DNA from: Candidatus Poribacteria bacterium | Lineage (GTDB): Bacteria; Poribacteria; WGA-4E; PCPOR2b | NCBI GenBank assembly: GCA_022822005.1 | Contig: JAJECO010000095.1 | Span: 360-64,359, forward strand | Length of the DNA: 64,000 nt | Direction: 5' to 3' | Shown: positions 65-16,147 of the stretch, one piece after another | Layout of the letters: each line of letters opens with the position of its first letter | How positions within the stretch are numbered: position 1 is the first letter of the stretch | Position numbers and translations under genes: made by a program | The notes under the pieces: generated by a model | The model's database searches: none | Told to the model about the DNA's origin: nothing | Seen by the model: only the letters and a program-made list of their open reading frames with translations

Positions 65-93
65 TTGACAAGACTTTGTGACTATGATAGAAT
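65..93 (+). promoter_or_regulatory. sigma70-type promoter of the 16-kb operon
   Basis: TTGACA (65-70), 17-nt spacer, TAGAAT (88-93) with extended -10 TG at 85-86. Confidence 0.8.
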
Positions 94-160: not shown

Positions 161-3100
161 ATGATCATTAAGAGGTATTTCTACATCATTATATGGCTTT
201 GCATCTTTGCATTACTATCTCCACATGCGGATTCTGCTGTTGATGAGCAGCTATCCGTGGGGCTTTCGGAGGCGGCAGTCAAAATCGTTGACAAAGTCGA
301 TATTGGTCGAATGCGAAAAGATATTGCTCGGCTATCTAATCTTCCCACCCGCGTTACTGGCTACGACGAAGCTGCGTCAGGCAGTAAATATATCTTTGAT
401 CAATTTGTCGAAATTGGTCTGCAAAACGTCGAGAGCCGTGAATTCCCTGTTTCCGTTCCGATAGACCACGGCGACGGGAAGGTAGAAATTCTCTCCGAAG
501 ATCAGACGCTCCTGAAGACTTACCGAATTTGGTCCATCTGGCCCAACCTTGTTCGTACCTCCTTCCTGCCCAACGGTGTCTCCCATCTGGTAGTTAGTGG
601 CGAAACCCTTGAGGACATTGCAAAATCCTACCAAGTTGCCCCGGAATCCATTTTAGCTGACCCGCATAACCAATACCTCCGAGACCAAGCAACCGATGGC
701 AGTGACAACGATGATGATGGTGAGATTGACGAACCGGGCGAACTTGTACTGGTAGAAGGCAACTCGCTTTTTATCCCCACGGGTGGACTGACTGCGCCTC
801 TCTTTTACGGCGGAAGTGGTGAACTCTCCTCGTTCAACGGGAAAGATGTGGGCGGCTTCTGGCACAAAGTCCAACCGAATGATACGCTGGCGGACCTCGC
901 TCACCGGTTCCGTATTGGCGTAGGCAGCATCACTGACGACGTCCTTAACGGTCACCTCCAAAAGACCCAAGACGGTATTGACAACAATGAAGACGGACAG
1001 ATTGATGAATACGGCGAGATTCCCCCGCTGGCTGAGATCTTGCAATGGGATAGCGACGGCATCGACAACGACGGTGACACTTTCGTAGACGAGCGTCCCG
1101 GTGATGAAACGGATGGCATTGATAACAACAACAACGGACAGATCGATGAAGAAGGGGAGTTTATCGCGGCTTATGAATCCAGTATCTTTATCCCTCAAGG
1201 CAGCGTTGCACTCGTCGACTTCAATTCCAGCACTAAATGGATTAACGCGGCAATGCTCGGCGCGAAAGCTGTACTCTTCATCGAGCCGGAGACCACTATC
1301 CGCGGCGAGGCTGAGAACAAATTTTTGACGGTGCCTGCCAACATCCCTCGCTTCTGGATCTCGAAAGAGGATGCAGATGAACTCTTGGCTATGCTTGGTG
1401 AAGGGGGCGAGCAAACGGACGTCCCCGCTCAGAAGCTTCAGGCACGCCTCACCAGCACTATTACGTGGGAACAGCGTATTGGACAAAATATCCGTGGCTT
1501 CCTCGAAGGTGGAGACCCAACCCTGAAAGATGAGTTAGTCGTTCTCACTGGCTACTATGACTCGATGTCGGTCGTCCCCGCGATGGCACCGGGTGCTGAT
1601 CCCACCGGTGGTATCGCCACGTTGCTGGAACTTGCCCGTATCTTTAGTGAAGAGGAATTCCGACCGGGCCGTTCCCTTCTTTTTGTCGCAACGGATGCAC
1701 ACTTCCAAGGGTTAGGGGGTATGCGCGCATTTATGGAAGGGATTGGTCAGGACATTGTCGGACGGGAAGCAGATTCTCCGGGCACACCGACAATGCGCGG
1801 CTTGCGGCGCGGCTTGAGCACCGATCTTTTTGAGTTTGAGGAATTGGGACGCAAGCTACTGCTATCCATCGATCGAAATGTGTTGGTAGACCTACCCCCT
1901 GACTTTTTCCACGAGGTTCATGCACTCAAAGCAGATGTTGCCTCGCTTGCAACGACGCTCACCGACCTGCAATCAACAAAGGGAAAAATCGACTCGCTGC
2001 GGAACGCCCAACGTGAGGCAAAAGAGAAAGAGAAGAAGAAGTTAGAAACAACCAAAAAACGGGAGAAACAGGGATTCACCGAAGAGGAGAAATCCCGACT
2101 TGAGGTTAACCTTGCAAAGTTCAAGAAGGACGCACTGCAGACCACCCAATTCCTTCAATCAATGCTGCAACGCACGCTAAACTTGCGCACACAGGCATTG
2201 GCAGAGTGCCGCGAAACCCAGCGAGATCTGATTGAACAGATCGCCTTACCGATGGCTCGGTTGGATGTATGGGCAATCGATAAACTGGAAGCAGATTTGG
2301 CAGCAAAACGGATTGAAGGGAAATATGTGCAAACACCGGACAGCAGCTATCTCGTGCCGAGGGAAAGGGAGGACGAAACTTATTACTTGCCTGCCCCAAG
2401 CGACCTGCCCTCACACTTAGAGCCAGATCTTCAGCTGCTCTCAGCAAACCTACAGGATTGGGAGTTTGAAGACCCACGGAAGTTTACCCTCCAGTACGCT
2501 CACGAGAAGTTGTTAGACCGCCACCTTGACTTTAAGGGTTTAGAGCGAATTAAGTCTGCACGTAGAGTTGTCAACCGGGCTGAAAAATCCTTGGAAGCCT
2601 ATATCGAAGAGGAACGACGACTCCTCGAACGTACCCTCGAAACCATTCCCGCGAGCAGCGACTCAGAAGATCTTATCAGAAATGCCATCACCCAGTTGGG
2701 TGCCAAACCTGATCATGTCCCCGATGGTTTTGTCGATGAGCTAAAACTCTTCCTCAACGAATCGACCCTCAAGCAGTTCGATATTGTCCAGACCCAACTC
2801 CACCAGAAATTGGAGATGATGGATCCGACAGGGGGAACAGCGACATCGCGAGAGTTAGACCAGATCCTCATCGATGACCTGACCAGAGATAAACAGAGTA
2901 TACTTGAAACTGCGATGCGTAACGCCCGTCTGGAGCGGTATCGAATTGAGAACCTCCTCGTACGCCATGCGACGCTGAACCGCCCTTATCTCGCGGAAGA
3001 AGCGCTGGTCCTCCGTCACTATCTGCCTGAAGACGCAGCGGACCGCGCGATGACCGTCCGAGAACAGATCTTCGGTCAGATCGAAGAACAACATCTGTTA

Positions 3101-6100
3101 GAGGTGGTGAAGAAGCGCGCCAAGAACGATATTGTCGAACTCCAGAACCTTCTGAACGTGCTTGATCGTCTCGATCGTGATCCGGACGAGGAGACCAAGA
3201 TCCTCCTGCGTGACAACCTGCTCACGATGCGTAACGCCCGATTCCGGAATCTGCAGAAACGGGTGGAAAAGATTGCACGTATCAGCGAGTCGGAATACAC
3301 TCGGAAGATTCGTTCCATCGAGCAAGCAATTGCATTGCAAGATATCTTCAACCGCTACTATACTTCGCTCTTTATCTCAATCGACCTCTCCAGCCAGAAC
3401 GACCAATTCGGCGTATTTAACAAAGGTTGGTTCTACGACCAACAACCTGAATTTGTTCTCCGCCGCGAGTTTGCGTCTATCGGCAACAAACTTGCGGAAT
3501 ACGCGGAGCAAGCTGATTTCGGTGAGCGTATCCAGAAACTATGGACGTTCACTGACGATCAGATCCGCCAAGCGGTGATGAATACCCAGTGGGTAGTTGC
3601 AGCGGGTATCGACCCGAAAAGAGCGATTGAAGGAAAGAGTCTGGAGAGTTTAGTCACTGAACATTACGCAACGCTGGTCGGACTTTCCGGGGTCTCGCGA
3701 CTGATGAAGATGCAGTTTGAACAGATGAGAAATCAGGGTGAGCCTTCGGAGGATATGTTGAAGGATATGGACTACATCCGCAAGGAGGTCGAGCGATTCA
3801 TCCGAAACGACATCCGGGAGGCGCGGAAGAACCGCAAGAATAGGGTTCGTCTGCTCAATCGGCTGGATGCGATGCTTGCCTTACGTTATGAGGATCCGTC
3901 GGAATTTACCCAAGACGAGGTCGATGATATTAAAGCACTCATTAACATCGCGGGTTTTGGCGGTGAGACCAACTTTGTCAACGCAATCTCTGCCAGTGGC
4001 GGTAAGATTTGGAAGACCTACATCCCCGGAAAGATCGCTTTTGATAGCGAGGTGGCGACCCTCACCGGCTTTACGGGCATTGCTTTTGCCACGATTGACG
4101 ATGCACGTGTGCTTACGGATACCCCGCTCGACACAATTGACCGCATGGACCTGCGTAGAGACGGTGCCTTACACAAGCAGGCGAAAACCCTCGCCGCCAT
4201 TCTTATCCAAGGAATGCGCGACCCGAAGATGCCTACCGCCGCCCGGGTGGGTAACTTCTACTGCAACCTATTTGGCGATGTAGTTGAATATGATGCACGT
4301 GAGAGCGCACTACCAAACAAACCGGTGGAGCATCCTATCCTCGCTCTGCGGAGTCAGCACAAAACCATGATGGGCGTACGCGGTGATCTCATCGCAATGG
4401 GAGATAACAAAGGAAACTTTGAGGTCGCGGGGCTTGCAATGGAGGGACGCGCCACTATCCGCCTCAAAGGAACGCAAGAGGTGGAAGCCTATATCCTCGA
4501 CTCCGATTCTGGGGATATTGTCTACGCACCGGATCTCGGAAACTTTGGTGCAAAACTTTTGCCGAACCTGGTCCCGATCAACACCCACCGCCGCGGCTGT
4601 CGAATTGTGGTTTTCCCCTGTGTGTCAACCACCATCTACGATCTTGTGGATCAGCGCTATCTACGGACACTTCGTGAACTGGAGGTTTTTGATGCTGCCA
4701 GCGACAGCCCACCGGAAAAATATGGCGTATCAAAGCCGTGGCAACAAGAAGGCGTCTCAGCGACCGAGCCAATCGCGCTCGTCTATTCAGAGCCTAACAG
4801 CCGTATCAAGGTTGGTATGGCATACGGACAGATTGGCAAACGGTTACTATTGATTAAAGCGAGCAAGAGTGGGACGAAGAATCCAACGCTTTATACGGGC
4901 GAAGGATTTGTTGTGCGTGAAAACGGGAGTATTCGTGTGACACCATACGTTGTTGTCCGCGACATGTGGTGGCTCGATGAGAACCGGGCGAGTTTGTATA
5001 AACGGTTCGGTATTAGCAGCGATCGACTCGACCAACTCCACCAATTTGCGAACGAACATCTGAATCAGGCGGAGGCCGCCCTTACGCAAAAAGACTATCA
5101 GCAGGCGCTCAAGCTGGCTCGTGCCGCGTGGGGATATGAATCTCGTGCGTATCCCGATGTGAAGAAAACAGGCAATGATGTGGTCAACGGCGTGATGTTT
5201 TACCTTGCCCTTCTGATCCCATTTGCTTACTTTATGGAACGGTTAATATTCGCCTTCCCAACGGTCCAAAAACAGATTATGGGGACAGCTGCAATCTTCC
5301 TCGTAGTATTTTTCTTCTTGGCACAGGTGCATCCCGCTTTCCAGATCACCACAACGCCGGTGATCATCCTGATTGCGTTTGTCGTCCTTGCGTTGACGGC
5401 CATTGTTATCAGTATCATCGTCCGAAAATTTGAAGAACAGGTGGAAAAAATCAAGCAGGAAGGATCAAAGGTGTACAAGGCGGACGTGGGGCGTTTGTCT
5501 GCCTCCGCTGCCGCTTTCAGCCTGGGTATTTCCAACATGCGGAAGCGGAAGGGGCGCACCATTCTGACCTGTAGTACGCTGGTTATCCTCACCTTCACGG
5601 TTATCTCGTTTACGTCGGTGCGTACATTTATGCACCCCAACAGCACCAACCTACCGTCAGTAACACCGCGATACACCGGAATGCTTATCCGAGATCAGTA
5701 TTGGAATCCACTTGAGGAACCGGTTGTAAACTCGATTACAAATGATTTACGAAAGACCCAGATCCCCGAAAAGGACCTGCGGCTGCTACTGAAGAAGCGG
5801 TTGGGACAGGAAGGTAAATCTGGAGAGCAGATTGACACAGAAATTGAGGCAATCATAGCCCAATTACGCCAGCAGGAGACATTGGTCGAATTAGGTGAAG
5901 GCTCTGTCCTGCGAGTGCACAACATTGTCGCACCACGTGCGTGGTATCAATCTGCGGGAACAGGCGATCAGTCATTTGTCCAGCTTCAGCGTACCCCCAA
6001 TTTGCAAGATCCTGTACCGCCTGTCAACACGACTACCGGTCAACCGAAGACCTATTCCGCTACTATGCTGGTCGGGATGAGTCAAGACGAACCCGGTGTC

Positions 6101-7576
6101 ACGGGGATTGACCGCTACCTACAATATGGTCGATGGTATCATCCGGACGATGAAGCGGAGTGGCCTACGCAATGGCCCTACGCCTGTGTCCTCCCGAAAG
6201 GCATGGCAGACCTACTCGGCATTACCGAAGCCGATATGGGCAAAGCGACCGTATCCGTATATGGTGCGGACTTCACCGTTACTGGCGTACTCGGTATTGG
6301 CTTCAAAGACCTACAGGATAACGATGGCGAGGAACTGACACCTGTTGACTACCAACTGATGCAGCAGCAGGAAGCTCGAGGCGGCGGTGCAGGTGGACAG
6401 AACCAAGCCATGGAAGGTGAGTTGGAGAAATATATTCATCTGCCTCCTGACGCTGTGGCTATCCTTCCGTATGATGTAGTGATGAATCAGGGCGGGACGC
6501 TACGATCCGTCGCTGTGAACATGGAAGCACAACCTGGCGATCCAACAATCTTCAGTGCGGCAGATAAACTGGATCTGATCATGGCACCCTTGATGAATCG
6601 AATCGCACTTGACTTTTTTGTTGGGAAAGATCGGGATACCTACCTCTACAGCTCAATCGGAATGACCTCATTCTCTGGGATGGGCAACCTGTTCATACCG
6701 ATCTTGATTGCATCGCTGATTGTCTTGAACACGATGCTTGGTGCGGTCTACGAGCGGGTCCGTGAAATCAGCATCTACAGTTCTGTCGGGCTTGCTCCTG
6801 TGCATATCGCCTTCCTGTTCCTCGCAGAGGCGTGCGTGTATGCGATAGTTGGTGCTGTGCTTGGCTACCTGCTCGGACAGGCTGTCGCAACCGTCCTCGT
6901 TAAGTTTGGTTTACTCGCTGGACTGACGCTCAACTACTCCTCGATGTCAACGGTCGTGGCAACCATCATCGTGATGATCGTCGTGATCGGAAGCACACTG
7001 TATCCCGCAATTAAAGCAAGTCGTATGGCAGTACCTGACATCGAACGGAAATGGCAGTTGCCGGAACCTGAAGGCGATGAGTGGCACTTCGATCTCCCCT
7101 TCACTGTGTTAGCAGAAGAATCACTCGGCCTGAATATCTTCATGCGCGACTACTTTGAGGCGCATGCAGACGAATCTGCAAGTGACTTCTATACGGATCA
7201 GGTCGCTTTTGGTCGAACGCCTGTAGAAGTGGAAGGGAAGGAGGAAGAAGCCTACAACATCAGTATGATGGTGTGGCTCGCTCCTTATGATCTCGGTGTC
7301 AGCCAGTCCATTCGACTTGTCACCTCACCGGTCGGCGGCGAAGAGGAAGAGTTGTATAAGATTCACCTCGATGTCCATCGTGAGAGCGGGGAGATCGCCT
7401 CATGGAAGCGCGTCAATCGCCGTTTCCTGAACCTTGTCCGAAAACAGTTGCTAATCTGGCGGACGTTCAGTGCGGATATCCGCGGTGAGTTCCACGAGCG
7501 TGGACGACAAGAGAGCGAAACGGAAGATGCTCCGGGCGTTGGTGGTCTGGCTGCTCAACCAGTACCGGCAGACTAA
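161..7576 (+). CDS. Giant envelope protein: degenerate M28 peptidase/PA domain with LysM inserts fused to a MacB/FtsX-like ABC permease
   Basis: ATG 161 follows GGAGGAG (ORF track starts at 122). Has a signal peptide, M28-like segments (TRVTGY, GYYDS..APGADP, AHFQGLGG, IDLSS, DTPLD), two LysM-like motifs and DGIDNxxDGxIDE repeats. About 7 C-terminal TM segments include the FtsX signature NTMLGAVYERVREISIYSSVGLAP. Confidence 0.85.
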   Translation: MIIKRYFYIIIWLCIFALLSPHADSAVDEQLSVGLSEAAVKIVDKVDIGRMRKDIARLSNLPTRVTGYDEAASGSKYIFDQFVEIGLQNVESREFPVSVPIDHGDGKVEILSEDQTLLKTYRIWSIWPNLVRTSFLPNGVSHLVVSGETLEDIAKSYQVAPESILADPHNQYLRDQATDGSDNDDDGEIDEPGELVLVEGNSLFIPTGGLTAPLFYGGSGELSSFNGKDVGGFWHKVQPNDTLADLAHRFRIGVGSITDDVLNGHLQKTQDGIDNNEDGQIDEYGEIPPLAEILQWDSDGIDNDGDTFVDERPGDETDGIDNNNNGQIDEEGEFIAAYESSIFIPQGSVALVDFNSSTKWINAAMLGAKAVLFIEPETTIRGEAENKFLTVPANIPRFWISKEDADELLAMLGEGGEQTDVPAQKLQARLTSTITWEQRIGQNIRGFLEGGDPTLKDELVVLTGYYDSMSVVPAMAPGADPTGGIATLLELARIFSEEEFRPGRSLLFVATDAHFQGLGGMRAFMEGIGQDIVGREADSPGTPTMRGLRRGLSTDLFEFEELGRKLLLSIDRNVLVDLPPDFFHEVHALKADVASLATTLTDLQSTKGKIDSLRNAQREAKEKEKKKLETTKKREKQGFTEEEKSRLEVNLAKFKKDALQTTQFLQSMLQRTLNLRTQALAECRETQRDLIEQIALPMARLDVWAIDKLEADLAAKRIEGKYVQTPDSSYLVPREREDETYYLPAPSDLPSHLEPDLQLLSANLQDWEFEDPRKFTLQYAHEKLLDRHLDFKGLERIKSARRVVNRAEKSLEAYIEEERRLLERTLETIPASSDSEDLIRNAITQLGAKPDHVPDGFVDELKLFLNESTLKQFDIVQTQLHQKLEMMDPTGGTATSRELDQILIDDLTRDKQSILETAMRNARLERYRIENLLVRHATLNRPYLAEEALVLRHYLPEDAADRAMTVREQIFGQIEEQHLLEVVKKRAKNDIVELQNLLNVLDRLDRDPDEETKILLRDNLLTMRNARFRNLQKRVEKIARISESEYTRKIRSIEQAIALQDIFNRYYTSLFISIDLSSQNDQFGVFNKGWFYDQQPEFVLRREFASIGNKLAEYAEQADFGERIQKLWTFTDDQIRQAVMNTQWVVAAGIDPKRAIEGKSLESLVTEHYATLVGLSGVSRLMKMQFEQMRNQGEPSEDMLKDMDYIRKEVERFIRNDIREARKNRKNRVRLLNRLDAMLALRYEDPSEFTQDEVDDIKALINIAGFGGETNFVNAISASGGKIWKTYIPGKIAFDSEVATLTGFTGIAFATIDDARVLTDTPLDTIDRMDLRRDGALHKQAKTLAAILIQGMRDPKMPTAARVGNFYCNLFGDVVEYDARESALPNKPVEHPILALRSQHKTMMGVRGDLIAMGDNKGNFEVAGLAMEGRATIRLKGTQEVEAYILDSDSGDIVYAPDLGNFGAKLLPNLVPINTHRRGCRIVVFPCVSTTIYDLVDQRYLRTLRELEVFDAASDSPPEKYGVSKPWQQEGVSATEPIALVYSEPNSRIKVGMAYGQIGKRLLLIKASKSGTKNPTLYTGEGFVVRENGSIRVTPYVVVRDMWWLDENRASLYKRFGISSDRLDQLHQFANEHLNQAEAALTQKDYQQALKLARAAWGYESRAYPDVKKTGNDVVNGVMFYLALLIPFAYFMERLIFAFPTVQKQIMGTAAIFLVVFFFLAQVHPAFQITTTPVIILIAFVVLALTAIVISIIVRKFEEQVEKIKQEGSKVYKADVGRLSASAAAFSLGISNMRKRKGRTILTCSTLVILTFTVISFTSVRTFMHPNSTNLPSVTPRYTGMLIRDQYWNPLEEPVVNSITNDLRKTQIPEKDLRLLLKKRLGQEGKSGEQIDTEIEAIIAQLRQQETLVELGEGSVLRVHNIVAPRAWYQSAGTGDQSFVQLQRTPNLQDPVPPVNTTTGQPKTYSATMLVGMSQDEPGVTGIDRYLQYGRWYHPDDEAEWPTQWPYACVLPKGMADLLGITEADMGKATVSVYGADFTVTGVLGIGFKDLQDNDGEELTPVDYQLMQQQEARGGGAGGQNQAMEGELEKYIHLPPDAVAILPYDVVMNQGGTLRSVAVNMEAQPGDPTIFSAADKLDLIMAPLMNRIALDFFVGKDRDTYLYSSIGMTSFSGMGNLFIPILIASLIVLNTMLGAVYERVREISIYSSVGLAPVHIAFLFLAEACVYAIVGAVLGYLLGQAVATVLVKFGLLAGLTLNYSSMSTVVATIIVMIVVIGSTLYPAIKASRMAVPDIERKWQLPEPEGDEWHFDLPFTVLAEESLGLNIFMRDYFEAHADESASDFYTDQVAFGRTPVEVEGKEEEAYNISMMVWLAPYDLGVSQSIRLVTSPVGGEEEELYKIHLDVHRESGEIASWKRVNRRFLNLVRKQLLIWRTFSADIRGEFHERGRQESETEDAPGVGGLAAQPVPAD

Positions 7577-7599
7577 AACGTGATGAGTGAAACGTGAAA
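7577..7599. repeat. Left tandem heptamer array (AAACGTG-type)
   Basis: aaacgtg atgagtg aaacgtg aa directly after the stop codon of the giant gene. Confidence 0.8.
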
Positions 7600-7632
7600 A
7601 CTACACCATAATATAGCAAGAAGTGTAGTCAG

Positions 7633-7994
7633 ATGAACTATGAAGAGTGGGAAGATTCGGTTTCTGCTGAAATCACTAACGATTCTTTATGGAAGATAGA
7701 GGCTTATCGTTTGGGGTTGTTTGCCGCGGCTGTGGGGTGGCATGATGCAACTAAGCTGATGCAGGATAAACGTACGCTTGGGTTGTCAGATCAATTCTAT
7801 CGATCGCTTGGTTCTCTCAGCGCGAATCTCGCCGAAAGCTATTCACGCGGTACAGGCAGGGACCGCGCTCGCTTCTATGAATACGTACTTGGTTCCGCTA
7901 GAGAGAGCCGAGAAAGGGCTGGTGCGTGAAACCGACCCACACATATAAAACGGAGAACACGGATCTTATTTTGTAGAACGTTTCTTTCTTTTAA
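7633..7994 (+). pseudogene. Four-helix-bundle (TIGR02436/PF05635-like) pseudogene, deleted copy of 14326-14796
   Basis: First ~94 aa nearly match the 14326 copy (SANLAE.YSRGTGRDRARFYEY.LGSARESR). An internal deletion follows; the out-of-frame tail HTYKTENTDLIL*NVSFF* matches YTYKMENMNPILQNIPFS*. Confidence 0.85.
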
Positions 7995-8014
7995 TCACGC
8001 ATCACGTTTCACGT
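7995..8014. repeat. Right (inverted) heptamer array
   Basis: tcacgcatcacgtttcacgt; its reverse complement matches the left array (aaacgtgatg.gtga, 14/15). Confidence 0.8.
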
Positions 8015-8034
8015 AAAGGAGAAAAACAGAATCA

Positions 8035-8202
8035 ATGGAAAAATTAGCATACGTCTTAATTTTTGTCGGTGCCCTTTTATGGGTGTTCTCGATTTTCGCT
8101 ATGGGAGGTAGATGGCAGGTACAGCTACTCGCTGCCCTAATTCTCATGGTTGGAATTATCATCGCCCACGTTTGGGAAGAGCTTTACCGAGAAAAAAAAT
8201 AA
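8035..8202 (+). CDS. 55-aa two-TM membrane protein (not in ORF track)
   Basis: AAGGAG upstream; MEKLAYVLIFVGALLWVFSIFAMGGRWQVQLLAALILMVGIIIAHVWEELYREKK*; two hydrophobic stretches and a charged tail; lies within the operon. Confidence 0.7.
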   Translation: MEKLAYVLIFVGALLWVFSIFAMGGRWQVQLLAALILMVGIIIAHVWEELYREKK

Positions 8203-8208
8203 CGGGCT

Positions 8209-8409
8209 CGTGAACCGTGAGAAAAGATTGCTTTGAATCTCCCGATTTCGCTCTATTATTTTGAGTAGGAAACAACCATTGTCGTTCTTACGAAATCGTG
8301 GATTCACGATTTGGTCAAGTTTTAGCCCCTGAAACAAACCAAATTGGAACCGATCTTATCAAGGTGGGTATCTCTCCATTCTGAGAGTCTTGGACCTCAC
8401 GTTTTACGT
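8209..8409. repeat. Heptamer-bracketed non-coding insert with central hairpin
   Basis: cgtgaaccgtga (8209-8220) and tcacgttttacgt (8397-8409) flank a segment containing the perfect hairpin aaatcgtg-gatt-cacgattt (8293-8312). Confidence 0.5.
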
Positions 8410-8427
8410 CCTGAAAGGAGCATAAAT

Positions 8428-10425
8428 TTGGCAAGAGAAAGGGTGTCGCAAGCAGAAGAGTGGCAAGCTTGGGCACAGCGTTATGATGTTGAGGGTGGTT
8501 TAAGAACCTTTGAGTCCGGCTTAACTCTCAAAGTCTTTCTGGGCGCAATCTTCATCGGATTATTGATGATGCCGGGTTCAATCTATCTGACACTGGTTGC
8601 AGGTCAGTCGGGCGCGGGTGCTGCGCCTTGGGTAGCGGTTATTCTGTTTACAGAATTGGCACGCCGGTCTTTCACAACTGCAAGGAGACAAGAACTTTAC
8701 ATTTTGCTGGGGTTAACCGGCATGGCAGTTGGCTCTGGAATCCAATATCGTGCCTATCCATTTGTCTGGTACGCCTACTTTATCAACACACCGCAGGCAC
8801 AGTCGTATGAAATCGCGGACAAAGTCCCCTATTGGGTCGCACCTGCGAAGGACGCGGTGGCGATTGCAGAGCGTTCGCTCTTGCACATGGACTGGTTCTG
8901 GCCCCTTGCGATCTTTTTAGTCATGAAGTTGCTGGCAGAGGTTCGCTATATTAGCGCGAGCTACTTTCTGTTCCGTCTGACAGCAGATTTAGAGCGACTC
9001 CCCTACCCGTTGGCACCGATTCAGGCACAGGGTGCGACCGCATTAGCCGAAACCACCGGACAGGGGGAAACATGGCGTTGGCGTGTCTTTTCAATCGGAT
9101 CCATGGCGGGACTGTTCTGGGGGTTTTTCTATATCGGTATTCCCGCGCTCACAGGCGTGATGATGTCAACACCGATACAGATTCTGAAAATTCCATTTAT
9201 CGACTTCACCCCAAGTATCGAAAGTTTTGCGCCGTCGGGTATGTTTGCCCTATGGACAGATTTTGGACTGATGCTACAAGGGTTCGTGCTGCCGTTTCCA
9301 CTCATTATAAGCGAATTCGCTGCCGCGATGTTCACGCAATTTATTCTGAATCCGCGAATCCTTTATCCATTGGAGATCCTACATCAGTGGCGTCCGGGCT
9401 TGGATATGCGTGGTGTTAAGTTGTTTAATGACCTTGATTTCTGGTTGAGTTTCAATATGGGCAAATCCTTCAGCTTCGCCGCTGTTGGTTTGGCAGCGTC
9501 CATCCCAATCATGTTGAGCCTCAGAAAAACAAAACAACAAGACGCTGGCGCGCGAGGCTCGCTGCAGACGCCGCCGGGCCGCGGCGATTTCCCAATCTGG
9601 CTGATGGGCGGTCTGTGGGGTCTCAGCATGGTGGTTTATGTGTGGATTGTGCATCGGATGGTGCCAAACTTCCCGGTTTCATTCTTGCTCGGCTTTGCCT
9701 TTCTGTACACACCGTTGCATTCCTATATCAACGCACGAACATTCGGGGTGTTAGGACGACCGCTCTTTGTGCTGCCTTACATCCATCAGGCAACTTTTAT
9801 TTTAAGCCGCTACGAAGAGATCGATATCTGGTTTGTCCACCTCCCAGATGAGGATTACGGCGCGGGTACACAGCATTGGCGTGTGCTTGAATTGACAGGT
9901 ACAACCTTCACCAGCGATGTGCTTGGGCGAGCGTTGATGGTGCCGCTCTTGATCGTCGCGACGATCGTGGTCTGGCATTTTATATGGCAGATCGCGCCTA
10001 TCCCGTCCTCACAGTATCCTTTTGCACAGACATGGTGGCCCCTCTACGCAACCGATGAAGCCCTCTGGAAAACCTCACTCCGAGATGGAAATAGCCAGAT
10101 GCTACAAGCCATTCGCGGCGATTACGTGTCAGCTGGCTTTACCTCCTCAGTAGCAATTTACGGCATTCTCTGGATGGCAAAGGCACCAAGTATGTGGTTC
10201 TACGGAATTGTTGGGGGAATCGGTCAAGACCCAGGCATGATGGTTCCACGCGTTGTCGGCGCACTCATCGGTCGGTTCTACATGATCAAACAGTTCGGCC
10301 TGAAACGCTGGTTCATGTATAACCCCGTCTTGGCGGCAGGCTTCATCTGTGGCGTCGGGCTTGTTGGTATGGGCACGGTTGCGATCGCGTTGGTTTCCAA
10401 AGCGGTGATTGTCAAGCCGTTTTAG
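8428..10425 (+). CDS. OPT/YSL-like polytopic peptide transporter, paralogue 1
   Basis: TTG 8428 after AAAGGAG gives an N-terminus matching paralogue 2 (ARERV.QAEEWQ); many TM segments; OPT-like N-terminal motif LTLKVFLGA.F.GLLMMPGSIYL. Confidence 0.7.
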   Translation: MARERVSQAEEWQAWAQRYDVEGGLRTFESGLTLKVFLGAIFIGLLMMPGSIYLTLVAGQSGAGAAPWVAVILFTELARRSFTTARRQELYILLGLTGMAVGSGIQYRAYPFVWYAYFINTPQAQSYEIADKVPYWVAPAKDAVAIAERSLLHMDWFWPLAIFLVMKLLAEVRYISASYFLFRLTADLERLPYPLAPIQAQGATALAETTGQGETWRWRVFSIGSMAGLFWGFFYIGIPALTGVMMSTPIQILKIPFIDFTPSIESFAPSGMFALWTDFGLMLQGFVLPFPLIISEFAAAMFTQFILNPRILYPLEILHQWRPGLDMRGVKLFNDLDFWLSFNMGKSFSFAAVGLAASIPIMLSLRKTKQQDAGARGSLQTPPGRGDFPIWLMGGLWGLSMVVYVWIVHRMVPNFPVSFLLGFAFLYTPLHSYINARTFGVLGRPLFVLPYIHQATFILSRYEEIDIWFVHLPDEDYGAGTQHWRVLELTGTTFTSDVLGRALMVPLLIVATIVVWHFIWQIAPIPSSQYPFAQTWWPLYATDEALWKTSLRDGNSQMLQAIRGDYVSAGFTSSVAIYGILWMAKAPSMWFYGIVGGIGQDPGMMVPRVVGALIGRFYMIKQFGLKRWFMYNPVLAAGFICGVGLVGMGTVAIALVSKAVIVKPF

Positions 10426-10882: not shown

Positions 10883-10892
10883 CCGAGTTATT

Positions 10893-12890
10893 ATGGCAAG
10901 AGAACGAGTTACACAAGCAGAAGAGTGGCAGGTCTGGGCGCAGCGCTACGATATAGATGGTGGTATCCGCACCTTTGAGTCGGGATTAACACTGAAGGTC
11001 TTTCTGGGCGCACTTTTTGTCGGCTTGCTAATGATGCCGGGATCAATCTACCTGACTTTAGTCTCCGGTCAGTCGGGGGCTGGGGCGGCGCCGTGGGTTG
11101 CGGTTATCCTGTTCACGGAGTTGGCGCGTAGATCTTTTACAACCGCTCGGCGACAAGAGCTTTATATGTTACTCGGACTCACCGGTGCAGCGGTCGGGTC
11201 TGGGGGGCAGTATCGCGGCTTTATCTGGTACGCCTATTTTGTCAATACGGCACAAGCTGCGTCGTATGAAATTGCGGATAAGATCCCCTTCTGGGTTGTG
11301 CCGCCGAAAGATGCGTTAGCAATTGCAGAGCGTTCGCTCTTGCACATGGACTGGTTTTGGCCGATTGCATTCTTCCTGATATTCAAGTTGCTGGGAGAGC
11401 TCCGCTATATCAGTGCGGGCTACTTTCTGTTTCGTCTGACAGCGGACATGGAGCGGCTTCCCTACCCGATGGCACCCATCGAAGCGCAGGGCGCGACCGC
11501 CTTGGCAGAGACTACGGGCCGTGTGGAAACGTGGCGTTGGCGTGTCTTTTCGGTCGGATCTATGGCGGGGCTGATCTGGGGCTTTATTTATATCGGTGTC
11601 CCCTCACTCACGGGGGTGATGATGTCAACGCCGATACAACTCCTCAAGATTCCATTTATTGACTTTACAAATGTAATCGAGGAAATTGCGCCAACGGGTG
11701 TGTTCGCACTATCGACGGACTTTGGAGCGGTCCTTACAGGTTTTGTGCTGCCATTCCCCGTTATCATGACGGAACTGGCGGGGGCGTTCTTCACCCAGTT
11801 TATCCTGAATCCACGCCTCCTTTATCCAGCGGAGATCCTGCATCAGTGGCGTCCCGGCTTAGATGTCCGTGGCACCGGTTTGTACAACGGTCTCGATTTC
11901 TGGATCAGCTTCGGGATGGGCAAATCTTTCAGTTTCGCTCTCGTCGGCATGGCAGCCTCGATTCCGATGGTGTTAAAGTTTAAGCAAGTCCGACAGGAAC
12001 AGGCGGGGGCAGGCAGATCGTTACAAGCACCTCCCCCGGGACGCGGTGATTTTCCACTCTGGTTGATGGCGATCCTATGGCTCTTTGGGATGGGGACTTT
12101 CATCTATATTGTCCACACCTATATGGTGCCGAATTTCCCGTTGGTCTTCCTACTTGGTTTTGCGTTTTTGTACACCCCGGTCAATTCATACATCACCGCA
12201 CGGACGTATGGGATTCTTGGTCGTGACCTTTTCGAGATTCCTTATCTCCACGAAACGACATTTATTTTGAGCCGCTATGAGGAGATTGATATTTGGTTCG
12301 TCCCTCTGCCGGATGAAGACTATGGCCGTGGGACACAGAGTTGGCGTGTCCTTGAATTGACAGGTACCACCTTCACCAGTAGTATCGCTGCGCGATTGCT
12401 GCTTATGCCGATCTTGATTGTCTCTGGAATTGTGGTTTGGCATTTTATTTGGAAAGTTGCGCCAATTCCGTCTGCACAATATCCTTTTGCGCAGACGTGG
12501 TGGCCTCTCTATGCGACCAACGAAAGTCTCTGGAAAACCTCGCTTCGAGACGGAAACAGCCAGATGTTGCAAGCCATTCGTGGAAACTATGTGGCGGCAG
12601 GTTTCACCTCTTCGTTGGCAATCTACGGTCTGCTCTGGGTGGCAAAGATGCCGAGTATGTGGTTCTACGGAATTGTTGGGGGAATCGGTGCAGATCCCGG
12701 CATGATGCTGCCGAAGGTGATGGGAGCGATTATTGGTCGGTTTTACATGATAAAGAAATTCGGTCTGAAACGATGGTTCATGTTTAACCCCGTTTTGGCG
12801 GCAGGCTTTACTTGCGGTGTTGGGCTGATTGGGATGGGAACGGTTGCAGTTGCACTGGTGTCCAAAGCAGTCATCGTAAAGCCATTTTAG
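10893..12890 (+). CDS. OPT/YSL-like polytopic peptide transporter, paralogue 2
   Basis: 665 aa, co-linear with and highly similar to 8428-10425 over the full length. Confidence 0.7.
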   Translation: MARERVTQAEEWQVWAQRYDIDGGIRTFESGLTLKVFLGALFVGLLMMPGSIYLTLVSGQSGAGAAPWVAVILFTELARRSFTTARRQELYMLLGLTGAAVGSGGQYRGFIWYAYFVNTAQAASYEIADKIPFWVVPPKDALAIAERSLLHMDWFWPIAFFLIFKLLGELRYISAGYFLFRLTADMERLPYPMAPIEAQGATALAETTGRVETWRWRVFSVGSMAGLIWGFIYIGVPSLTGVMMSTPIQLLKIPFIDFTNVIEEIAPTGVFALSTDFGAVLTGFVLPFPVIMTELAGAFFTQFILNPRLLYPAEILHQWRPGLDVRGTGLYNGLDFWISFGMGKSFSFALVGMAASIPMVLKFKQVRQEQAGAGRSLQAPPPGRGDFPLWLMAILWLFGMGTFIYIVHTYMVPNFPLVFLLGFAFLYTPVNSYITARTYGILGRDLFEIPYLHETTFILSRYEEIDIWFVPLPDEDYGRGTQSWRVLELTGTTFTSSIAARLLLMPILIVSGIVVWHFIWKVAPIPSAQYPFAQTWWPLYATNESLWKTSLRDGNSQMLQAIRGNYVAAGFTSSLAIYGLLWVAKMPSMWFYGIVGGIGADPGMMLPKVMGAIIGRFYMIKKFGLKRWFMFNPVLAAGFTCGVGLIGMGTVAVALVSKAVIVKPF

Positions 12891-12921
12891 TTCATTGGTT
12901 CACTAGTGCATTAGTTCATTA
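12890..12921. repeat. Left tandem octamer array (GTTCATTG-type)
   Basis: gttcattg gttcacta gtgcatta gttcatta, starting in the TAG stop codon. Confidence 0.8.
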
Positions 12922-12941
12922 AGGGCACTTTGAGATGAGAG

Positions 12942-13337
12942 TTGGATATGTTTAAGAAGACAGAACAACTCTGTGATGAAATTTGGGAAGTCGTAGCAAA
13001 ATGGGACGGTTTTGCAAGAGATACCATCGGCAAACCACTAGTCCGTAGTACGGATTCGAGAGGCGCAAACTTGGCAGAAGGAGACGGGCGATACCACTTC
13101 AAAGAAAAACTAAACTTCTACTACATTGCACGGTGCCCATTAAAGGAAACTGGCTACTGGCTGCGGCGGGCCCAGAATCGCCGATTGCTCACTCCAGGCC
13201 AAACTGCTCACCTGCTCAATCGTATGCAATCCGTGCACCGATGGATTAACAGTGTGATTGGACAACGCCGCCAATGGACCGCCCAATTACGCGAACAAAC
13301 TGACGAATACAGTATTAACGAATCATTAAACCTGTAA
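12942..13337 (+). CDS. Four-helix-bundle protein (TIGR02436/PF05635-like), second subfamily, possibly decaying
   Basis: DEIWEVVAKWDGFARDTIGKPLVRSTDSRGANLAEGDGRY..KEKLNFYYIAR..LKET.YWL matches the family pattern; the 5' end looks frameshifted (H-F-E then a 4-nt shift before E-L-D-M-F-K). Confidence 0.75.
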   Translation: MDMFKKTEQLCDEIWEVVAKWDGFARDTIGKPLVRSTDSRGANLAEGDGRYHFKEKLNFYYIARCPLKETGYWLRRAQNRRLLTPGQTAHLLNRMQSVHRWINSVIGQRRQWTAQLREQTDEYSINESLNL

Positions 13338-13350
13338 CCAATGAACCAAT
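13316..13350. repeat. Right (inverted) octamer array
   Basis: taacgaat cattaaac ctgtaac caatgaac caat; aaccaatgaac is the reverse complement of gttcattggtt in the left array. Confidence 0.7.
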
Positions 13351-13351
13351 T

Positions 13352-14281
13352 ATGAAATGGACAACTTTAGGGTGGAATGGCATTACCGTCGAGCTTCCTG
13401 AGGATTGGGAGTTGAGCGGATTATCTGGCGATGACAAAAGCGGGTATTTGCGCCTTGAGGACGCTGATATGCCGCGCCTTGAGTTAAAGTGGTCTGAGTC
13501 AAAGCAGAAGAAGCCGGATCTCCAACGCGTTCTCGACGACTATTTTAAGCTTGTTCGAAAAAATTATAAGCGTAGAGACACAAACCTCCACATCCAGCGT
13601 AATATTAATCTGATCAAGGACCCGCAGTTTTTCGAGGATCGAGAGGTTGCTTTCTTCAACTGGAAGGGGGAGATTCGGGCGACCGGCGTCATCTTCCACT
13701 GCCAGATCTGTAAGCGGATCACAATTGTGCAGGTTATGGGGCATCTCAAGGAAAATATTAAAGAAACAACCAACCGCATTCTGACTTCTGTTCAAGATCA
13801 CCCCGTAGGACAGACAACGCTTTGGAGTGCCTACCAACTCAATGCAGAAGTCCCGCGACGGTATCGGCTTGACAAGCATAAACTGCTGTCCGGCTATCTA
13901 CTTTTTTCATTCGTAGATGGCAGCCGAAAGGTTAGCATTGAACGGTATGGGGTCGCAGATGTAACCCTGAAGGAACAGGATCTTGAGGAGTGGTTTCGAG
14001 CAAGATATGCGAAAGCTATCCGTGGATATGGCTTCTCAATTGAATCCAGTAACGGTGAGGCGGATGAGAAACTAAAGTTAATCGGGGAGGAAACCCGTCT
14101 TATAGACCGCGTGCCCCTCGCGCCCGCTCTGGTTATGGATAAGGTCATGCGTCGTAAAACTTTTGCCGCTAACCTCTGGCGTTGTCATCACTCAAATCGG
14201 ATTTACGTCGTACAAGCAATTGCGAAGCAGGATGCAGCGAAGACTGCAGAAGAGATTGCGGCGAGTATCCGGCGTCATTAA
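13352..14281 (+). CDS. Uncharacterised soluble protein (309 aa)
   Basis: Long ORF in the operon with no signal peptide or TM segment; family not recognised. Confidence 0.75.
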   Translation: MKWTTLGWNGITVELPEDWELSGLSGDDKSGYLRLEDADMPRLELKWSESKQKKPDLQRVLDDYFKLVRKNYKRRDTNLHIQRNINLIKDPQFFEDREVAFFNWKGEIRATGVIFHCQICKRITIVQVMGHLKENIKETTNRILTSVQDHPVGQTTLWSAYQLNAEVPRRYRLDKHKLLSGYLLFSFVDGSRKVSIERYGVADVTLKEQDLEEWFRARYAKAIRGYGFSIESSNGEADEKLKLIGEETRLIDRVPLAPALVMDKVMRRKTFAANLWRCHHSNRIYVVQAIAKQDAAKTAEEIAASIRRH

Positions 14282-14309
14282 CGAGTGAAACGTGAAACGT
14301 GATGCGTGA
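14281..14309. repeat. Left tandem heptamer array (4 units)
   Basis: acgagtg aaacgtg aaacgtg atgcgtg a. Confidence 0.85.
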
Positions 14310-14325
14310 CAGGAAATGTACTCGG

Positions 14326-14796
14326 ATGAACTATGAAGAATGGGAACATTCAGTTTCTGCTGAAATTATCAAGGATTCTTTATGGAAGATGGAGGCTTAT
14401 CGTCTGGGATTATTTGCTGCGGATGTGGGGTGGCATGACGCAACTAAACTGATGCGGGATAAACGTACGCTTGAATTGTCAGACCAACTCTACCGAGCAC
14501 TGGGTTCTATCAGTGCGAATCTCGCCGAAGGCTATTCACGCGGCACCGGCAGGGATAGAGCTCGTTTCTATGAATACGCGCTCGGTTCCGCTAGAGAAAG
14601 CCGGGATTGGTACTACAAGGGGCGACACATATTGGGTCCAGCGGTTACTACTCATCGTCTGAGTCTGCTTACCCAAATTATTCGGCTGCTACTGACGATG
14701 GTTCCACAACAACGTCAGGAAATTCTACATGAGACCCGATATACCTACAAAATGGAAAACATGAATCCTATTTTACAAAATATTCCCTTCTCCTAA
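14326..14796 (+). CDS. Four-helix-bundle protein (TIGR02436/PF05635, 23S-IVS/Avd-like), intact
   Basis: SDQLYRALGSISANLAEGYSRGTGRDRARFYEYALGSARESRDWY family motif; ATG 14326 (the track's 14299 start reads through the repeats). Confidence 0.85.
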   Translation: MNYEEWEHSVSAEIIKDSLWKMEAYRLGLFAADVGWHDATKLMRDKRTLELSDQLYRALGSISANLAEGYSRGTGRDRARFYEYALGSARESRDWYYKGRHILGPAVTTHRLSLLTQIIRLLLTMVPQQRQEILHETRYTYKMENMNPILQNIPFS

Positions 14797-14825
14797 TCAC
14801 GTTTCACGTTTTACGTTTCACGTTC
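14797..14825. repeat. Right (inverted) heptamer array (4 units)
   Basis: t cacgttt cacgttt tacgttt cacgttc; can pair with 14284-14309 at 22/26 Watson-Crick plus 2 G-U. Confidence 0.85.
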
Positions 14826-14846
14826 ACTAATGAACCGAATACGCCG

Positions 14847-15263
14847 ATGATTAACACAATCCTTTACAAACTCCGACTAAAGAAACCCCCAGAATCCCAA
14901 CTGGATCGCGCAGATATCTTACAATCGTTGCCGCTGCGCAATCAGTTAATCGAGTGGGAGGTCGATGACAAGGGGGAAGTTGCGCTGGTAATCCCTCAGA
15001 AGGAGACGGTGTGGCTGCGGTTAGTGGCAAAACTGTTTATGCTGCCTCCCAACCGTGTGGTCGTCTTAGATGATGTCGGGGGTTTTGTGTGGCAACTGTG
15101 CGACGGACATAACTCCATCGGTCATATTGTCAAGCAGCTTAGTGGAAAGTATCGCATGACGAGAAAAGAGGCAGAGACATCGCTGTTCACGTTTATGCGG
15201 CAGTTAGGTAAGCGGGGAATGGTAGGATTTGCGGTTCCCCAAAACGCGAAGAAAGGAAAGTAA
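14847..15263 (+). CDS. PqqD-family (RRE-like) protein
   Basis: VVLDDVGGFVWQLCDGHNSIGHIVKQLSGKY..TRKEAETSLFTFMRQLGKRGMV matches the PqqD winged-helix pattern. Confidence 0.8.
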   Translation: MINTILYKLRLKKPPESQLDRADILQSLPLRNQLIEWEVDDKGEVALVIPQKETVWLRLVAKLFMLPPNRVVVLDDVGGFVWQLCDGHNSIGHIVKQLSGKYRMTRKEAETSLFTFMRQLGKRGMVGFAVPQNAKKGK

Positions 15264-15267
15264 CAAA

Positions 15268-16092
15268 ATGGCAGAATTAGAAGGTTTAGCTCCGGAAACA
15301 GCGGCGCATACCGCCGTTCCGACGGAAACGCCCGCACGATTTGCACGGGATCTACCCAAGGAAAACACAGTACGGGTGAGGAACCTGATCAAGAAATATG
15401 AGATGGGCACCACCGTCGTTGAGGCGTTGCGAGGCACCAATTTTGAGATTCGCCGTGGTGAATATATCTCCATTATGGGACCATCAGGTTCCGGTAAATC
15501 AACACTTTTCAACATGATTGGTGGGTTGGACAAACCAACAGAAGGCAGGGTCTACATCGATGAGGTGGACATCGCTCAACTGGATGCCTATGAATTGGCG
15601 TGGCTGCGCTGCCGCAAAATCGGTTACATTTTCCAGTCGTTCAACCTAATCCCGGTGATGACCGCCCTCGAAAATGTGTCGCTTCCTATGATTTTCGCAG
15701 GGATGACCGCTGATGATAGCCGTACAAAAGCCATTGAACTGCTAACCACTGTGGGGTTAGGAGAGCGGGTCCAGCATAAACCGCTTGAACTCTCAGGTGG
15801 TCAGCAACAGCGTGTTGCAGTGGCGCGTTCCCTCGCAAACGATCCCGCAATCGTGCTTGCAGATGAACCGACGGGAAACCTTGATACACGGACTGGACTT
15901 GAGATCATCGACCTCCTAAAAAGGCTGAACGAGGAGAACGGGGTCACGATTATCACAGCTACCCACGATACAAAGATGCTCGATGTGTCGGATCGAATTT
16001 TTTACATGGCGGATGGCAAAATTGACAAGATGGAGACCCGCGAAGAGATCGATCTGCAGGTTGGTAGGCTTGACGGTGAGGAAGTTGGATAG
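15268..16092 (+). CDS. LolD/MacB-type ABC transporter ATP-binding protein
   Basis: GPSGSGKST, GYIFQSFNLIP, LSGGQQQRVAVAR, VLADEPTGNLD, ATHD. Confidence 0.95.
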   Translation: MAELEGLAPETAAHTAVPTETPARFARDLPKENTVRVRNLIKKYEMGTTVVEALRGTNFEIRRGEYISIMGPSGSGKSTLFNMIGGLDKPTEGRVYIDEVDIAQLDAYELAWLRCRKIGYIFQSFNLIPVMTALENVSLPMIFAGMTADDSRTKAIELLTTVGLGERVQHKPLELSGGQQQRVAVARSLANDPAIVLADEPTGNLDTRTGLEIIDLLKRLNEENGVTIITATHDTKMLDVSDRIFYMADGKIDKMETREEIDLQVGRLDGEEVG

Positions 16093-16095
16093 GAA

Positions 16096-16147
16096 TGAAA
16101 CGTGAAACGTAAAGCACGAACAATCCGCACACATCACGTCTCACGTC
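16096..16147. repeat. Empty heptamer cassette / hairpin between convergent genes (possible terminator)
   Basis: tgaaacgtgaaacgtaaa, about 20 nt, then tcacgtctcacgtc. Confidence 0.7.

Follow-up and report, generated by a model that had tools for sequence, protein, structure and literature searches.

A 64,000-nucleotide (nt) stretch of the genome of a Candidatus Poribacteria bacterium (assembly GCA_022822005.1, contig JAJECO010000095.1), referred to here as the window, carries between positions 161 and 16092 a gene cluster that probably encodes one conserved envelope system, apparently undescribed so far, with a type VII (MacB/FtsX-fold) ATP-binding cassette (ABC) engine at its core. The cluster (Table 1) comprises a giant protein that joins a peptidase-like ectodomain to an FtsX-type permease, a small two-helix membrane protein, two copies of an OPT-fold membrane protein, a 309-residue cytoplasmic protein, a PqqD-like protein and an ABC ATPase. 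An earlier sequence-only reading of this DNA had proposed such a system, with all its genes on the + strand, and every substantial open reading frame (ORF) between 161 and 16092 does lie on that strand. The finding is real, and the system is more widespread and more complete than that reading supposed, forming a variant among type VII ABC systems. Co-localisation elsewhere and the literature uphold the idea of one uncharacterised system; the proposed pair of secondary transporters and the part list had to be given up, and the repeat cassettes are later insertions. Full-text literature searches found no description of the system and no paper in which FtsX is combined with M28, PqqD or OPT, in line with the original statement that no characterised system has this composition.

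Gene order provides the main evidence. Seventy-nine loci were taken around relatives of the OPT-like protein, and each was searched with every window protein. Of 80 informative loci, 72 have the giant gene, in the same orientation, as the immediate upstream neighbour of the OPT-like gene, and all informative Poribacteria loci (about 58) keep the order giant, OPT-like protein, 309-residue protein, PqqD, ATPase. The giant/OPT-like pair is also kept in Armatimonadota, Abditibacteria, WS1, Planctomycetota and unclassified metagenome-assembled genomes (MAGs), with the ATPase gene upstream in some, and two Armatimonadota loci (L001 and L076) hold the full set together with a small FtsX-like gene. 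Searching for co-localised homologues was the check that the sequence-only reading had itself suggested; the order holds across Poribacteria and the giant/OPT-like pair holds in at least four other phyla. This conserved co-localisation therefore supports a single uncharacterised multi-component system on a type VII ABC engine.

That the genes are independent neighbours without shared function, brought together by chance, is disfavoured and highly improbable. Such a view could draw on the long intergenic gaps with inserted genes in the window, and on genomes in which the OPT-like gene, the small FtsX gene or the ATPase gene stands apart from the giant, but it conflicts with an order kept in about 58 Poribacteria species and at least four other phyla, and with overlapping or near-abutting genes in several of them. 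In the deep-branching locus L055, the first three genes are 25 nt and 38 nt apart, the PqqD gene overlaps the 309-residue gene by 37 nt, and the ATPase gene overlaps the PqqD gene by 4 nt; in L082 the gap between the giant and OPT-like genes is 4 nt. Of 121 Poribacteria species genomes, 119 encode the giant, mostly once, and all 19 genera have it. Such near-universal, mostly single-copy presence suggests that the system does housekeeping work in the envelope and does not serve a niche or secondary metabolism.

The N-terminal part of the giant consists of a signal peptide, a PA/M28-like ectodomain interrupted by LysM/acidic and ~700-residue charged insertions, and a conserved middle domain, and the C-terminal part consists of three transmembrane (TM) helices, a MacB/FtsX-type four-TM permease with a periplasmic domain, and a conserved cytoplasmic C-terminal domain of ~175 residues. 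Pfam searches return LysM, PA, Peptidase_M28 and FtsX, plus MacB_PCD below its cut-off, and PDB sequence searches match LolC/MacB and leucyl aminopeptidase, which bears out the original description of a pseudo-peptidase fused to FtsX. Hydropathy analysis places a signal-like helix at the N-terminus, three helices within residues 1687-1766 and a further one at 1813-1831, which a predicted loop of ~360 residues separates from the start of the FtsX bundle at 2191. These predictions fit a topology with the ectodomain outside, three anchor helices, a cytoplasmic linker, a MacB-type TM1, periplasmic domain and TM2-4, and a cytoplasmic tail. When a profile of 17 giant homologues was compared with the PDB, its N-terminus matched 2ek8 (E = 3e-20), YwaD (3e-15), Nicalin (4e-10) and the transferrin receptor (1e-8), and its positions 1164-1345 matched MacB, LolC, LolF and YtrF.

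The peptidase-like head belongs to the M28 family by fold and homology, scoring 33.3 bits against a cut-off of 21.3 for PF04389, and its active site is altered. In the numbering of the Aeromonas (Vibrio) proteolytica aminopeptidase (1amp/2anp), the dizinc ligands are His97, Asp117, Glu152, Asp179 and His256, and the catalytic residue is Glu151. In a HMMER alignment to this enzyme, His97 is replaced by Tyr, Glu151 by His and Glu152 by Phe; the Asp117 position is ambiguous in the alignment (a one-residue gap), and the second-half ligands are read from the consensus only. Identical replacements occur in 17 homologues from Poribacteria, Armatimonadota, Planctomycetota and other groups. With these three positions replaced, the head is not a canonical dizinc peptidase and is probably non-catalytic. 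Since the replacing residues are themselves conserved, a binding site has probably been retained, and the head may contain a rewired binding or catalytic site.

This architecture resembles that of the transferrin receptor, Nicalin and the PA-domain M28 aminopeptidases 2ek8 and YwaD, in which a PA domain is likewise inserted in an M28-like domain. The transferrin receptor and Nicalin have lost the canonical dizinc site, and the giant resembles them in lacking it. Unlike all these proteins, the giant is both bacterial and fused to an ABC permease, and its replacing Tyr and His-Phe residues are conserved.

The comparison with known type VII ABC engines draws on PMC5985334 and PMC12646458. Like MacAB-TolC, LolCDE, FtsEX-EnvC, YbbAP-TesA, HrtBA and YtrEF, the window system has an FtsX-type permease of four helices, of which TM1 and TM2 may enclose an extracytoplasmic domain, and an ATPase of the LolD/MacB/FtsE type encoded as a separate protein. 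It probably also combines a large with a small permease, as the LolC/LolE heterodimer does, and it has an extracytoplasmic partner domain that, by analogy, could be driven by mechanotransmission. Unlike the known systems, it has a PA/M28-like pseudo-peptidase as partner domain, which three additional helices link to the N-terminus of the permease in a single fused protein, and its cytoplasmic C-terminal domain is specific to the family. The cluster is also genetically tied to OPT-fold, PsbP/Mog1-fold and PqqD-like proteins, and no partner of the MacA/TolC, LolA, EnvC or TesA type is encoded near it. The giant falls far below the cut-offs of the LolC, MacB and FtsX equivalog models. Identity with LolCDE was rejected on the LolC model (27.6 bits against a cut-off of 473) and the LolD model (232.7 against 307.75), and identity with FtsEX on the FtsE model, for which the window ATPase scores 206.6 bits against a cut-off of 264.85, with canonical FtsE and FtsX encoded on other contigs.

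The best-scoring named profile for the giant is the PADLOC candidate-defence model 'CARF_m8--CARF_LolE_TM' (PDLC01991), which is much stronger than the generic FtsX models. It gives 170 bits for the window giant and 205 bits for an Armatimonadota homologue, covering positions 69-683 of 810. The match runs collinearly through the extra helices, the FtsX bundle and part of the C-terminal domain (window 5180-7573, residues ~1680-2471), so relatives of this membrane module have already been catalogued in a CARF census. In contrast to that profile, however, the last ~127 positions are unmatched, the CARF-like part is not clearly matched, and the ectodomain of the giant lies outside it.

The C-terminal domain serves as a signature of the family. 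It matches 1,616 representatives of 50%-identity clusters at E<=0.001, and 1,420 at E<=1e-10. Among the best 150 of these 1,616 matches it stands at or near the C-terminus, mostly in proteins of 1.45-3.05 thousand residues, and the shorter matches are probably fragments. A PDB sequence search with the domain gave no relative. Homology to the 309-residue protein, raised by similar 'W.LPEP.GD.W' openings, was rejected (hhalign probability 0.65%).

Outside Poribacteria, the cluster also contains an FtsX-like protein of 215-280 residues with four helices and nearly no periplasmic loop, encoded next to the ATPase. In the window's own genome, a small FtsX-like gene, cut by a contig end, and a second MacB-type ATPase gene lie on another contig, and in two complete Poribacteria chromosomes this pair stands far from the cluster, at 1.9 Mb (G001) and, by coordinate, 3.2 Mb (G002). 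The part list proposed from the window was thus incomplete, lacking this pair as well as the 55-residue membrane protein encoded inside the cluster. The small FtsX-like gene of the window's genome is the orthologue of the in-cluster one of Armatimonadota: the best match of the Poribacteria small FtsX in an Armatimonadota genome is the in-cluster small FtsX. Between the two Poribacteria ATPases identity is 61%, and against the in-cluster ATPases of Armatimonadota (L001, L076) the cluster ATPase shows 72-73% identity and the second one 65-67%. These comparisons suggest a duplication followed by relocation. The most economical model would be that the giant and the small FtsX form a heterodimer similar to LolC/LolE.

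The cluster ATPase retains intact Walker A, signature and Walker B motifs by sequence reading. Its best NCBIfam matches are LolD, YbbA, DevA, DarD, MacB and FtsE (207-233 bits), all under their equivalog cut-offs, and its nearest nucleotide-binding domains are of the LolD/YbbA/DevA/MacB/FtsE type, as the label LolD-like had implied. Two in-cluster ATPases from other loci (L072, 2914-3831; L075, 2129-3073) carry an N-terminal extension of ~60 residues with CPxC...CPxC zinc-ribbon-like motifs, which is missing from the Poribacteria ATPases.

An FtsEX-like regulator of the cell wall, in which the ABC module switches the peptidase-like/LysM head or a recruited hydrolase to remodel peptidoglycan during growth or division, is an unlikely alternative for the whole system; the OPT-fold protein would then recycle released stem peptides or be a mere scaffold. 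In its favour, the Poribacteria head carries LysM segments, and its long charged helical insertion recalls the coiled coils of EnvC and PcsB, within a type VII ABC fold. The LysM model scores 27.7 bits against a cut-off of 20.9, though no single stretch passes alone, and precomputed annotations assign LysM to most Poribacteria giant homologues. The near-universal presence of the giant in the phylum also suits a cell-wall role. However, the genome has a canonical FtsE on contig C19 (296 bits, above the cut-off of 264.85, and the only FtsE in the genome to pass it) and a single match to the FtsX extracellular domain PF18075, on contig C6. The catalytic and metal-binding M28 residues are replaced in every homologue checked, and we know of no M28 enzymes among peptidoglycan hydrolases. 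Moreover, neither LysM nor the long insertion occurs outside Poribacteria: the alignment columns of the LysM/acidic insertions are empty in 13 non-Poribacteria homologues, and the charged insertion is missing from the homologues of 1.5-1.9 thousand residues in other phyla. A short insert in the periplasmic domain is a third Poribacteria-specific type by comparison with these shorter homologues.

The same FtsEX-like view gains some further ground from a co-directional triad of an FtsW/RodA (SEDS) gene, a homologue of the 309-residue protein and a 565-residue TPR protein (L063, 6065-10062; L071, 4868-8667; L077, 14099-17960), but the link to SEDS is found in these three non-Poribacteria loci only. 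The SEDS gene lies directly upstream of the 309-residue homologue, which the TPR gene overlaps by 4 nt. The triad stands a few kilobases downstream of the giant/OPT pair, after two or three DUF1559 pilin-like genes; in L071, where the upstream flank is cut, the distance was measured from the OPT-like gene. Downstream of the TPR gene, L071 also has a gene for DarT, a single-stranded-DNA ADP-ribosyltransferase, followed by a Macro-domain gene (8712-10434), forming a DarTG-type toxin-antitoxin pair.

The membrane proteins encoded after the giant show no family match by sequence. The two OPT-fold copies are paralogues with 79% identity, and neither has a Pfam or NCBIfam match even at E = 10; three distant homologues likewise have no Pfam match at E<=10. 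An AlphaFold2 model of the 665-residue copy has a predicted local distance difference test (pLDDT) score of 78.4 and a predicted template-modelling (pTM) score of 0.81. In a Foldseek search of the PDB with this model, the only significant match is barley Yellow Stripe 1 (HvYS1; 7wst/7wsr), with E = 2e-7, template-modelling scores of 0.60/0.65 and a probability of 1.00 for 7wst_A; the next PDB match has E = 0.05 and a score of 0.12. On the predicted structure, the assignment to the OPT/YSL fold is sound. The label 'OPT-like transporters' therefore stands at the level of fold, in common with HvYS1 and the fungal and plant OPT/YSL proteins, but does not extend to the OPT sequence model (PF03169, TC 2.A.67), and identity to YS1 is 13-15%. 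Among 8,000 candidates scored, 684 homologues were found at E<=0.001, and precomputed PF03169 annotations occur in 2 of 120 homologues among the matches listed. A further distinction from OPT/YSL proteins is that the window protein is encoded with an ABC engine, for which we know of no OPT/YSL precedent.

Two OPT-like copies occur in the nearest relatives only (94-98% identical: L004, L005, L006, L012-L014, L048). All other Poribacteria and all other phyla have a single copy, so the supposed secondary transporter pair is a genus-level, lineage-specific tandem duplication of one ancestral gene. The 55-residue two-helix protein, by comparison, belongs to the cluster in 52 Poribacteria loci (tblastn), every time between the giant and OPT-like genes. 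It is shorter than the usual ORF cut-off of 60 residues and was overlooked in the sequence-only reading; Pfam has no match for it.

A nutrient-scavenging importer, in which the head captures peptides or peptide-bearing polymers (from the sponge matrix in the case of Poribacteria) and the OPT-fold protein imports them, again has a low probability. Relatives in the OPT/YSL group import peptides and chelates (PMC9691689), and the PA/M28 architecture is shared with aminopeptidases and with receptor-type pseudo-peptidases such as the transferrin receptor. The genome also encodes 26 DUF6785 paralogues, similar in size, within catabolic gene neighbourhoods. Nonetheless, a mostly single-copy, near-universal module with fixed accessory genes would be unusual for nutrient uptake, and the same module is found in soil, hot-spring and anaerobic lineages of very different diets. 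Moreover, no import role is known for type VII ABC systems (PMC5985334).

The DUF6785 proteins form a second group of membrane proteins in this genome, 640-690 residues long (sites include G000:C79:64580-70299, C58:188128-191940 and C96:98360-99838), and none of 14 control genomes has one. Several of their genes lie in tandem, and several adjoin catabolic genes for FGE-sulfatase, enolase superfamily, aminotransferase, PhyH, Kelch/NanM-like and M16/M48 peptidase proteins. Two DUF6785 proteins checked outside the window's genome also carry DUF6784; neither domain was mentioned in any paper found by the literature searches. The paralogues are probably a large family of nutrient transporters. An hhalign comparison with the OPT-like family, based on one sequence, gave a probability of 0.2%, and no homology between the two was detected.

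The 309-residue protein is predicted to consist of two tandem alpha/beta domains of the Mog1/PsbP type. Foldseek matches its AlphaFold2 model to PsbP, the two-domain immunity protein TplEi, Mog1, DcrB and LpqN (probability 0.8-1.0), and also to Tsi3. Hydropathy analysis reveals no TM helix and no signal peptide. No Pfam or NCBIfam model matches even at E = 10, and a PDB profile search with its alignment is empty. Proteins of the Mog1/PsbP fold typically bind other proteins. Homologues occur in 64 locus ORFs, including those of Armatimonadota and WS1. This protein accounts for one of the 'two unknown proteins' first reported; the window cluster has no second non-cassette ORF of at least 60 residues without a family match.

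The PqqD-like protein, correctly named at the start, clears the Pfam cut-off for PF05402 and so shares its domain with the PqqD/RiPP recognition elements (RREs), RiPP denoting ribosomally synthesised and post-translationally modified peptides. Its gene is kept after the 309-residue gene in Poribacteria and in two Armatimonadota. A RiPP-type cluster for peptide maturation, export or immunity, with PqqD recognising a leader peptide and the ABC module exporting the product, is very unlikely. The RRE-type domain shows weak likeness to lasso-peptide and SCM PqqD families, and an ABC ATPase gene adjoins it, but all its NCBIfam equivalog scores are far under the cut-offs. Contrary to known RREs, it has an extra N-terminus of ~60 residues and a transporter-operon setting, with no cognate modifying enzyme or precursor. 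Radical SAM enzymes, cyclases, proteases and precursor genes are lacking among the cluster ORFs here and in the relatives examined, in a search that was not exhaustive for short precursor ORFs. Finally, the module belongs to the core gene set of a phylum, and RiPP export is not a known function of MacB-type permeases that bear a large receptor head.

Returning to the single envelope system on a type VII ABC engine, its mechanism may be outlined as follows. The giant and the small FtsX would form a pair like LolC and LolE, served by ATPases of one or two kinds, and ATP hydrolysis would be transmitted mechanically to the ectodomain. The ectodomain would bind or extract an envelope ligand that contains peptide, and in Poribacteria the LysM modules could hold it on peptidoglycan or another polymer of N-acetylglucosamine. 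The OPT-fold partner would then carry the ligand or its product across the inner membrane, with the 309-residue and PqqD-like proteins acting as possible adaptors or regulators at the cytoplasmic faces. A peptide or peptidoglycan-related substrate, and the proposed function of PqqD in the cytoplasm as a chaperone of peptides, are suggestions drawn from the family names. The evidence that bears on a peptide or cell-wall substrate is circumstantial: a peptidase-derived head, LysM in Poribacteria only, the peptide-binding families OPT and PqqD, and FtsW/RodA in three non-Poribacteria loci.

A more specific reading joins these elements into one new envelope machine, and we put it forward only tentatively, as possible though rather doubtful in its entirety. 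Here the giant and small FtsX would form a mechanotransmitter on two ATPases, docked to the OPT-fold carrier; ATP would gate or feed this secondary transporter through the tethered pseudo-peptidase head, and the PsbP/Mog1-fold and PqqD proteins would form a cytoplasmic control module. The whole would be a housekeeping part of the envelope in Poribacteria, the PVC group, Armatimonadota and relatives.

Type VII ABC systems are few, and each represents a distinct envelope process, such as lipoprotein sorting, control of division hydrolases, efflux or lipid extraction. With a giant family of at least ~1,400 clusters at 50% identity, they would gain a large branch not yet studied, in which the permease is fused to a receptor-like head and has an OPT-fold protein as its dedicated partner, mainly in phyla of poorly known envelope biology (Poribacteria, the PVC group, Armatimonadota). 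The family would also offer a first functional context for a bacterial OPT-fold family that lacks sequence-model annotation. The most interesting idea is physical coupling to the OPT-fold carrier: if the ABC engine and the carrier do act together, they would represent a coupling of primary and secondary transport not described so far.

Several observations weigh against this account. Physical coupling between the ABC module and the OPT-fold protein would have gene order as its single basis, and linkage is not obligatory: Gemmatimonadota/Latescibacterota genomes have free-standing OPT-like genes, with three to four giant paralogues elsewhere. Three giant paralogues were checked in one such genome. 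One stands beside a DUF6785/DUF6784 protein, one beside neither such a protein nor an OPT-like one, and the third between a DUF6785/DUF6784 protein and, past an amidohydrolase gene, a second OPT-like gene. Because the OPT sequence model does not match the OPT-like protein, what holds for OPT/YSL proteins in direction of transport and class of substrate may not apply to it. LysM and the long charged insertion, being specific to Poribacteria, are silent on ancestral function, and MacB_PCD (PF12704) scores 21.9 bits, under its cut-off of 27. The intergenic gaps in the window cluster are long, 467-767 nt, so that internal promoters are possible.

Two loci of a Gemmatimonadota/Latescibacterota-type MAG (G004) show DUF6785/DUF6784 proteins adjoining giant paralogues, at L099 14369-16444 and L101 3141-5378. 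For the small ORFs that flank free-standing OPT-like genes (L064, L065, L066), as for other neighbours, Pfam gave no informative match.

Table 1. Features of the gene cluster and associated elements (window positions unless a genome and contig are given).
Feature	Position	Strand	Basis and remarks
Sigma-70-like promoter	65..93	+	TTGACA, 17 nt spacer, TAGAAT, TG-extended; 11/12 consensus matches; upstream of giant gene; sequence match only
Giant envelope protein, 2,471 residues	161..7576	+	Pfam, NCBIfam, PDB sequence/profile matches, hydropathy
LysM-like (two) and acidic DGIDN-type repeat insertions in PA region	569..1195 (nt 569-775, 851-1195; residues 137-205, 231-345)	+	Poribacteria-specific
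M28-like motif region, altered active site	1526..1770	+	GYYDS (His97 to Tyr), PGADP, DAHFQG (Glu151-Glu152 to His-Phe)
Large charged, helix-prone insertion splitting M28-like domain (~700 residues)	1748..3943	+	Poribacteria only; coiled coil not formally predicted
FtsX-type TM2-TM4 bundle	6692..7027	+	PF02687, 45.5 bits vs cut-off 25.5, residues 2191-2302; LolC/MacB alignments
Signature cytoplasmic C-terminal domain (~175 residues)	7049..7573	+	Giant-family alignment
Cassette with truncated four-helix-bundle (23S_rRNA_IVP/TIGR02436) gene 7633-7929	7577..8017	+	Inverted heptamer arrays on both sides
55-residue two-helix membrane protein gene	8035..8202	+	Motif GRWQ..AH.WEEL; own AAGGAG ribosome-binding site
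OPT-fold membrane protein copy 1, 693-residue ORF	8344..10425	+	True start probably near LARERV motif
OPT-fold membrane protein copy 2, 665 residues	10893..12890	+	AlphaFold2 model and Foldseek
Cassette with four-helix-bundle gene 12942-13337	12887..13351	+	Octamer (GTTCATTG-type) arrays on both sides
309-residue cytoplasmic protein, two tandem Mog1/PsbP-like alpha/beta domains	13352..14281	+	AlphaFold2 pLDDT 88.3, Foldseek
Cassette with full-length four-helix-bundle gene 14299-14796	14282..14825	+	Inverted heptamer arrays on both sides
PqqD-like (RRE-type) small cytoplasmic protein, ~60-residue N-terminal extension	14847..15263	+	PF05402, 47.1 bits vs cut-off 23.4
MacB/LolD/FtsE-type ABC ATPase	15268..16092	+	ORF opens at 15229; ATG at 15268 is 4 nt past PqqD stop; PF00005, 118.7 bits
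Inverted heptamer arrays without cargo	16096..16148	.	Between convergent ATPase and FNR genes
Small FtsX-like permease (cut by contig end) and second MacB-type ATPase	G000:C45:19165-20292 (L091 9100-10292)		Window's own genome

The nearest public matches of the window proteins are from Poribacteria, and the related loci are Poribacteria MAGs. A GGAGGAG Shine-Dalgarno sequence at 149-155 precedes the ATG of the giant. By sequence, the promoter in Table 1 is strong and close to consensus. The scan that covers it gave 16 promoter-like matches, with 16.1 expected by chance, a frequency at which the 'one promoter' of the sequence-only reading is no more than a candidate. An Rfam search of positions 1-17500 found no riboswitch or other RNA element at E<=0.1.

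The repeat cassettes, which the sequence-only reading had noted in the junctions, are variable insertions of four-helix-bundle genes rather than parts of the system. Their presence and position vary even in close relatives, which marks them as later insertions, and the cassette at the giant/OPT1 junction is absent there in most relatives. These cassettes, like the second OPT copy, are recent local additions. Two copies of the four-helix-bundle sequence (7617-7913 and 14310-14606) are 86% identical, and the flanking arrays are built from heptamer units of the GTGAAAC/TCACGTT type or octamer units of the GTTCATTG type. The statement that cassettes alone fill the junctions is right for the presence of four-helix-bundle cassettes at three of them and wrong for the giant/OPT1 junction, which also contains the 55-residue gene. 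The OPT1/OPT2 junction (467 nt) has repeat arrays and no four-helix-bundle gene.

Beyond the ATPase gene, the heptamer arrays at 16096-16148 were considered as a terminator hairpin and rejected, their stability being no better than that of shuffled sequence (z = -0.56). Outside the cluster and convergent with the ATPase gene, a gene at 16148-17143 on the - strand encodes a ferredoxin-NADP reductase (FNR) of the cyanobacterial PetH type, which scores 246 bits against an equivalog cut-off of 600.

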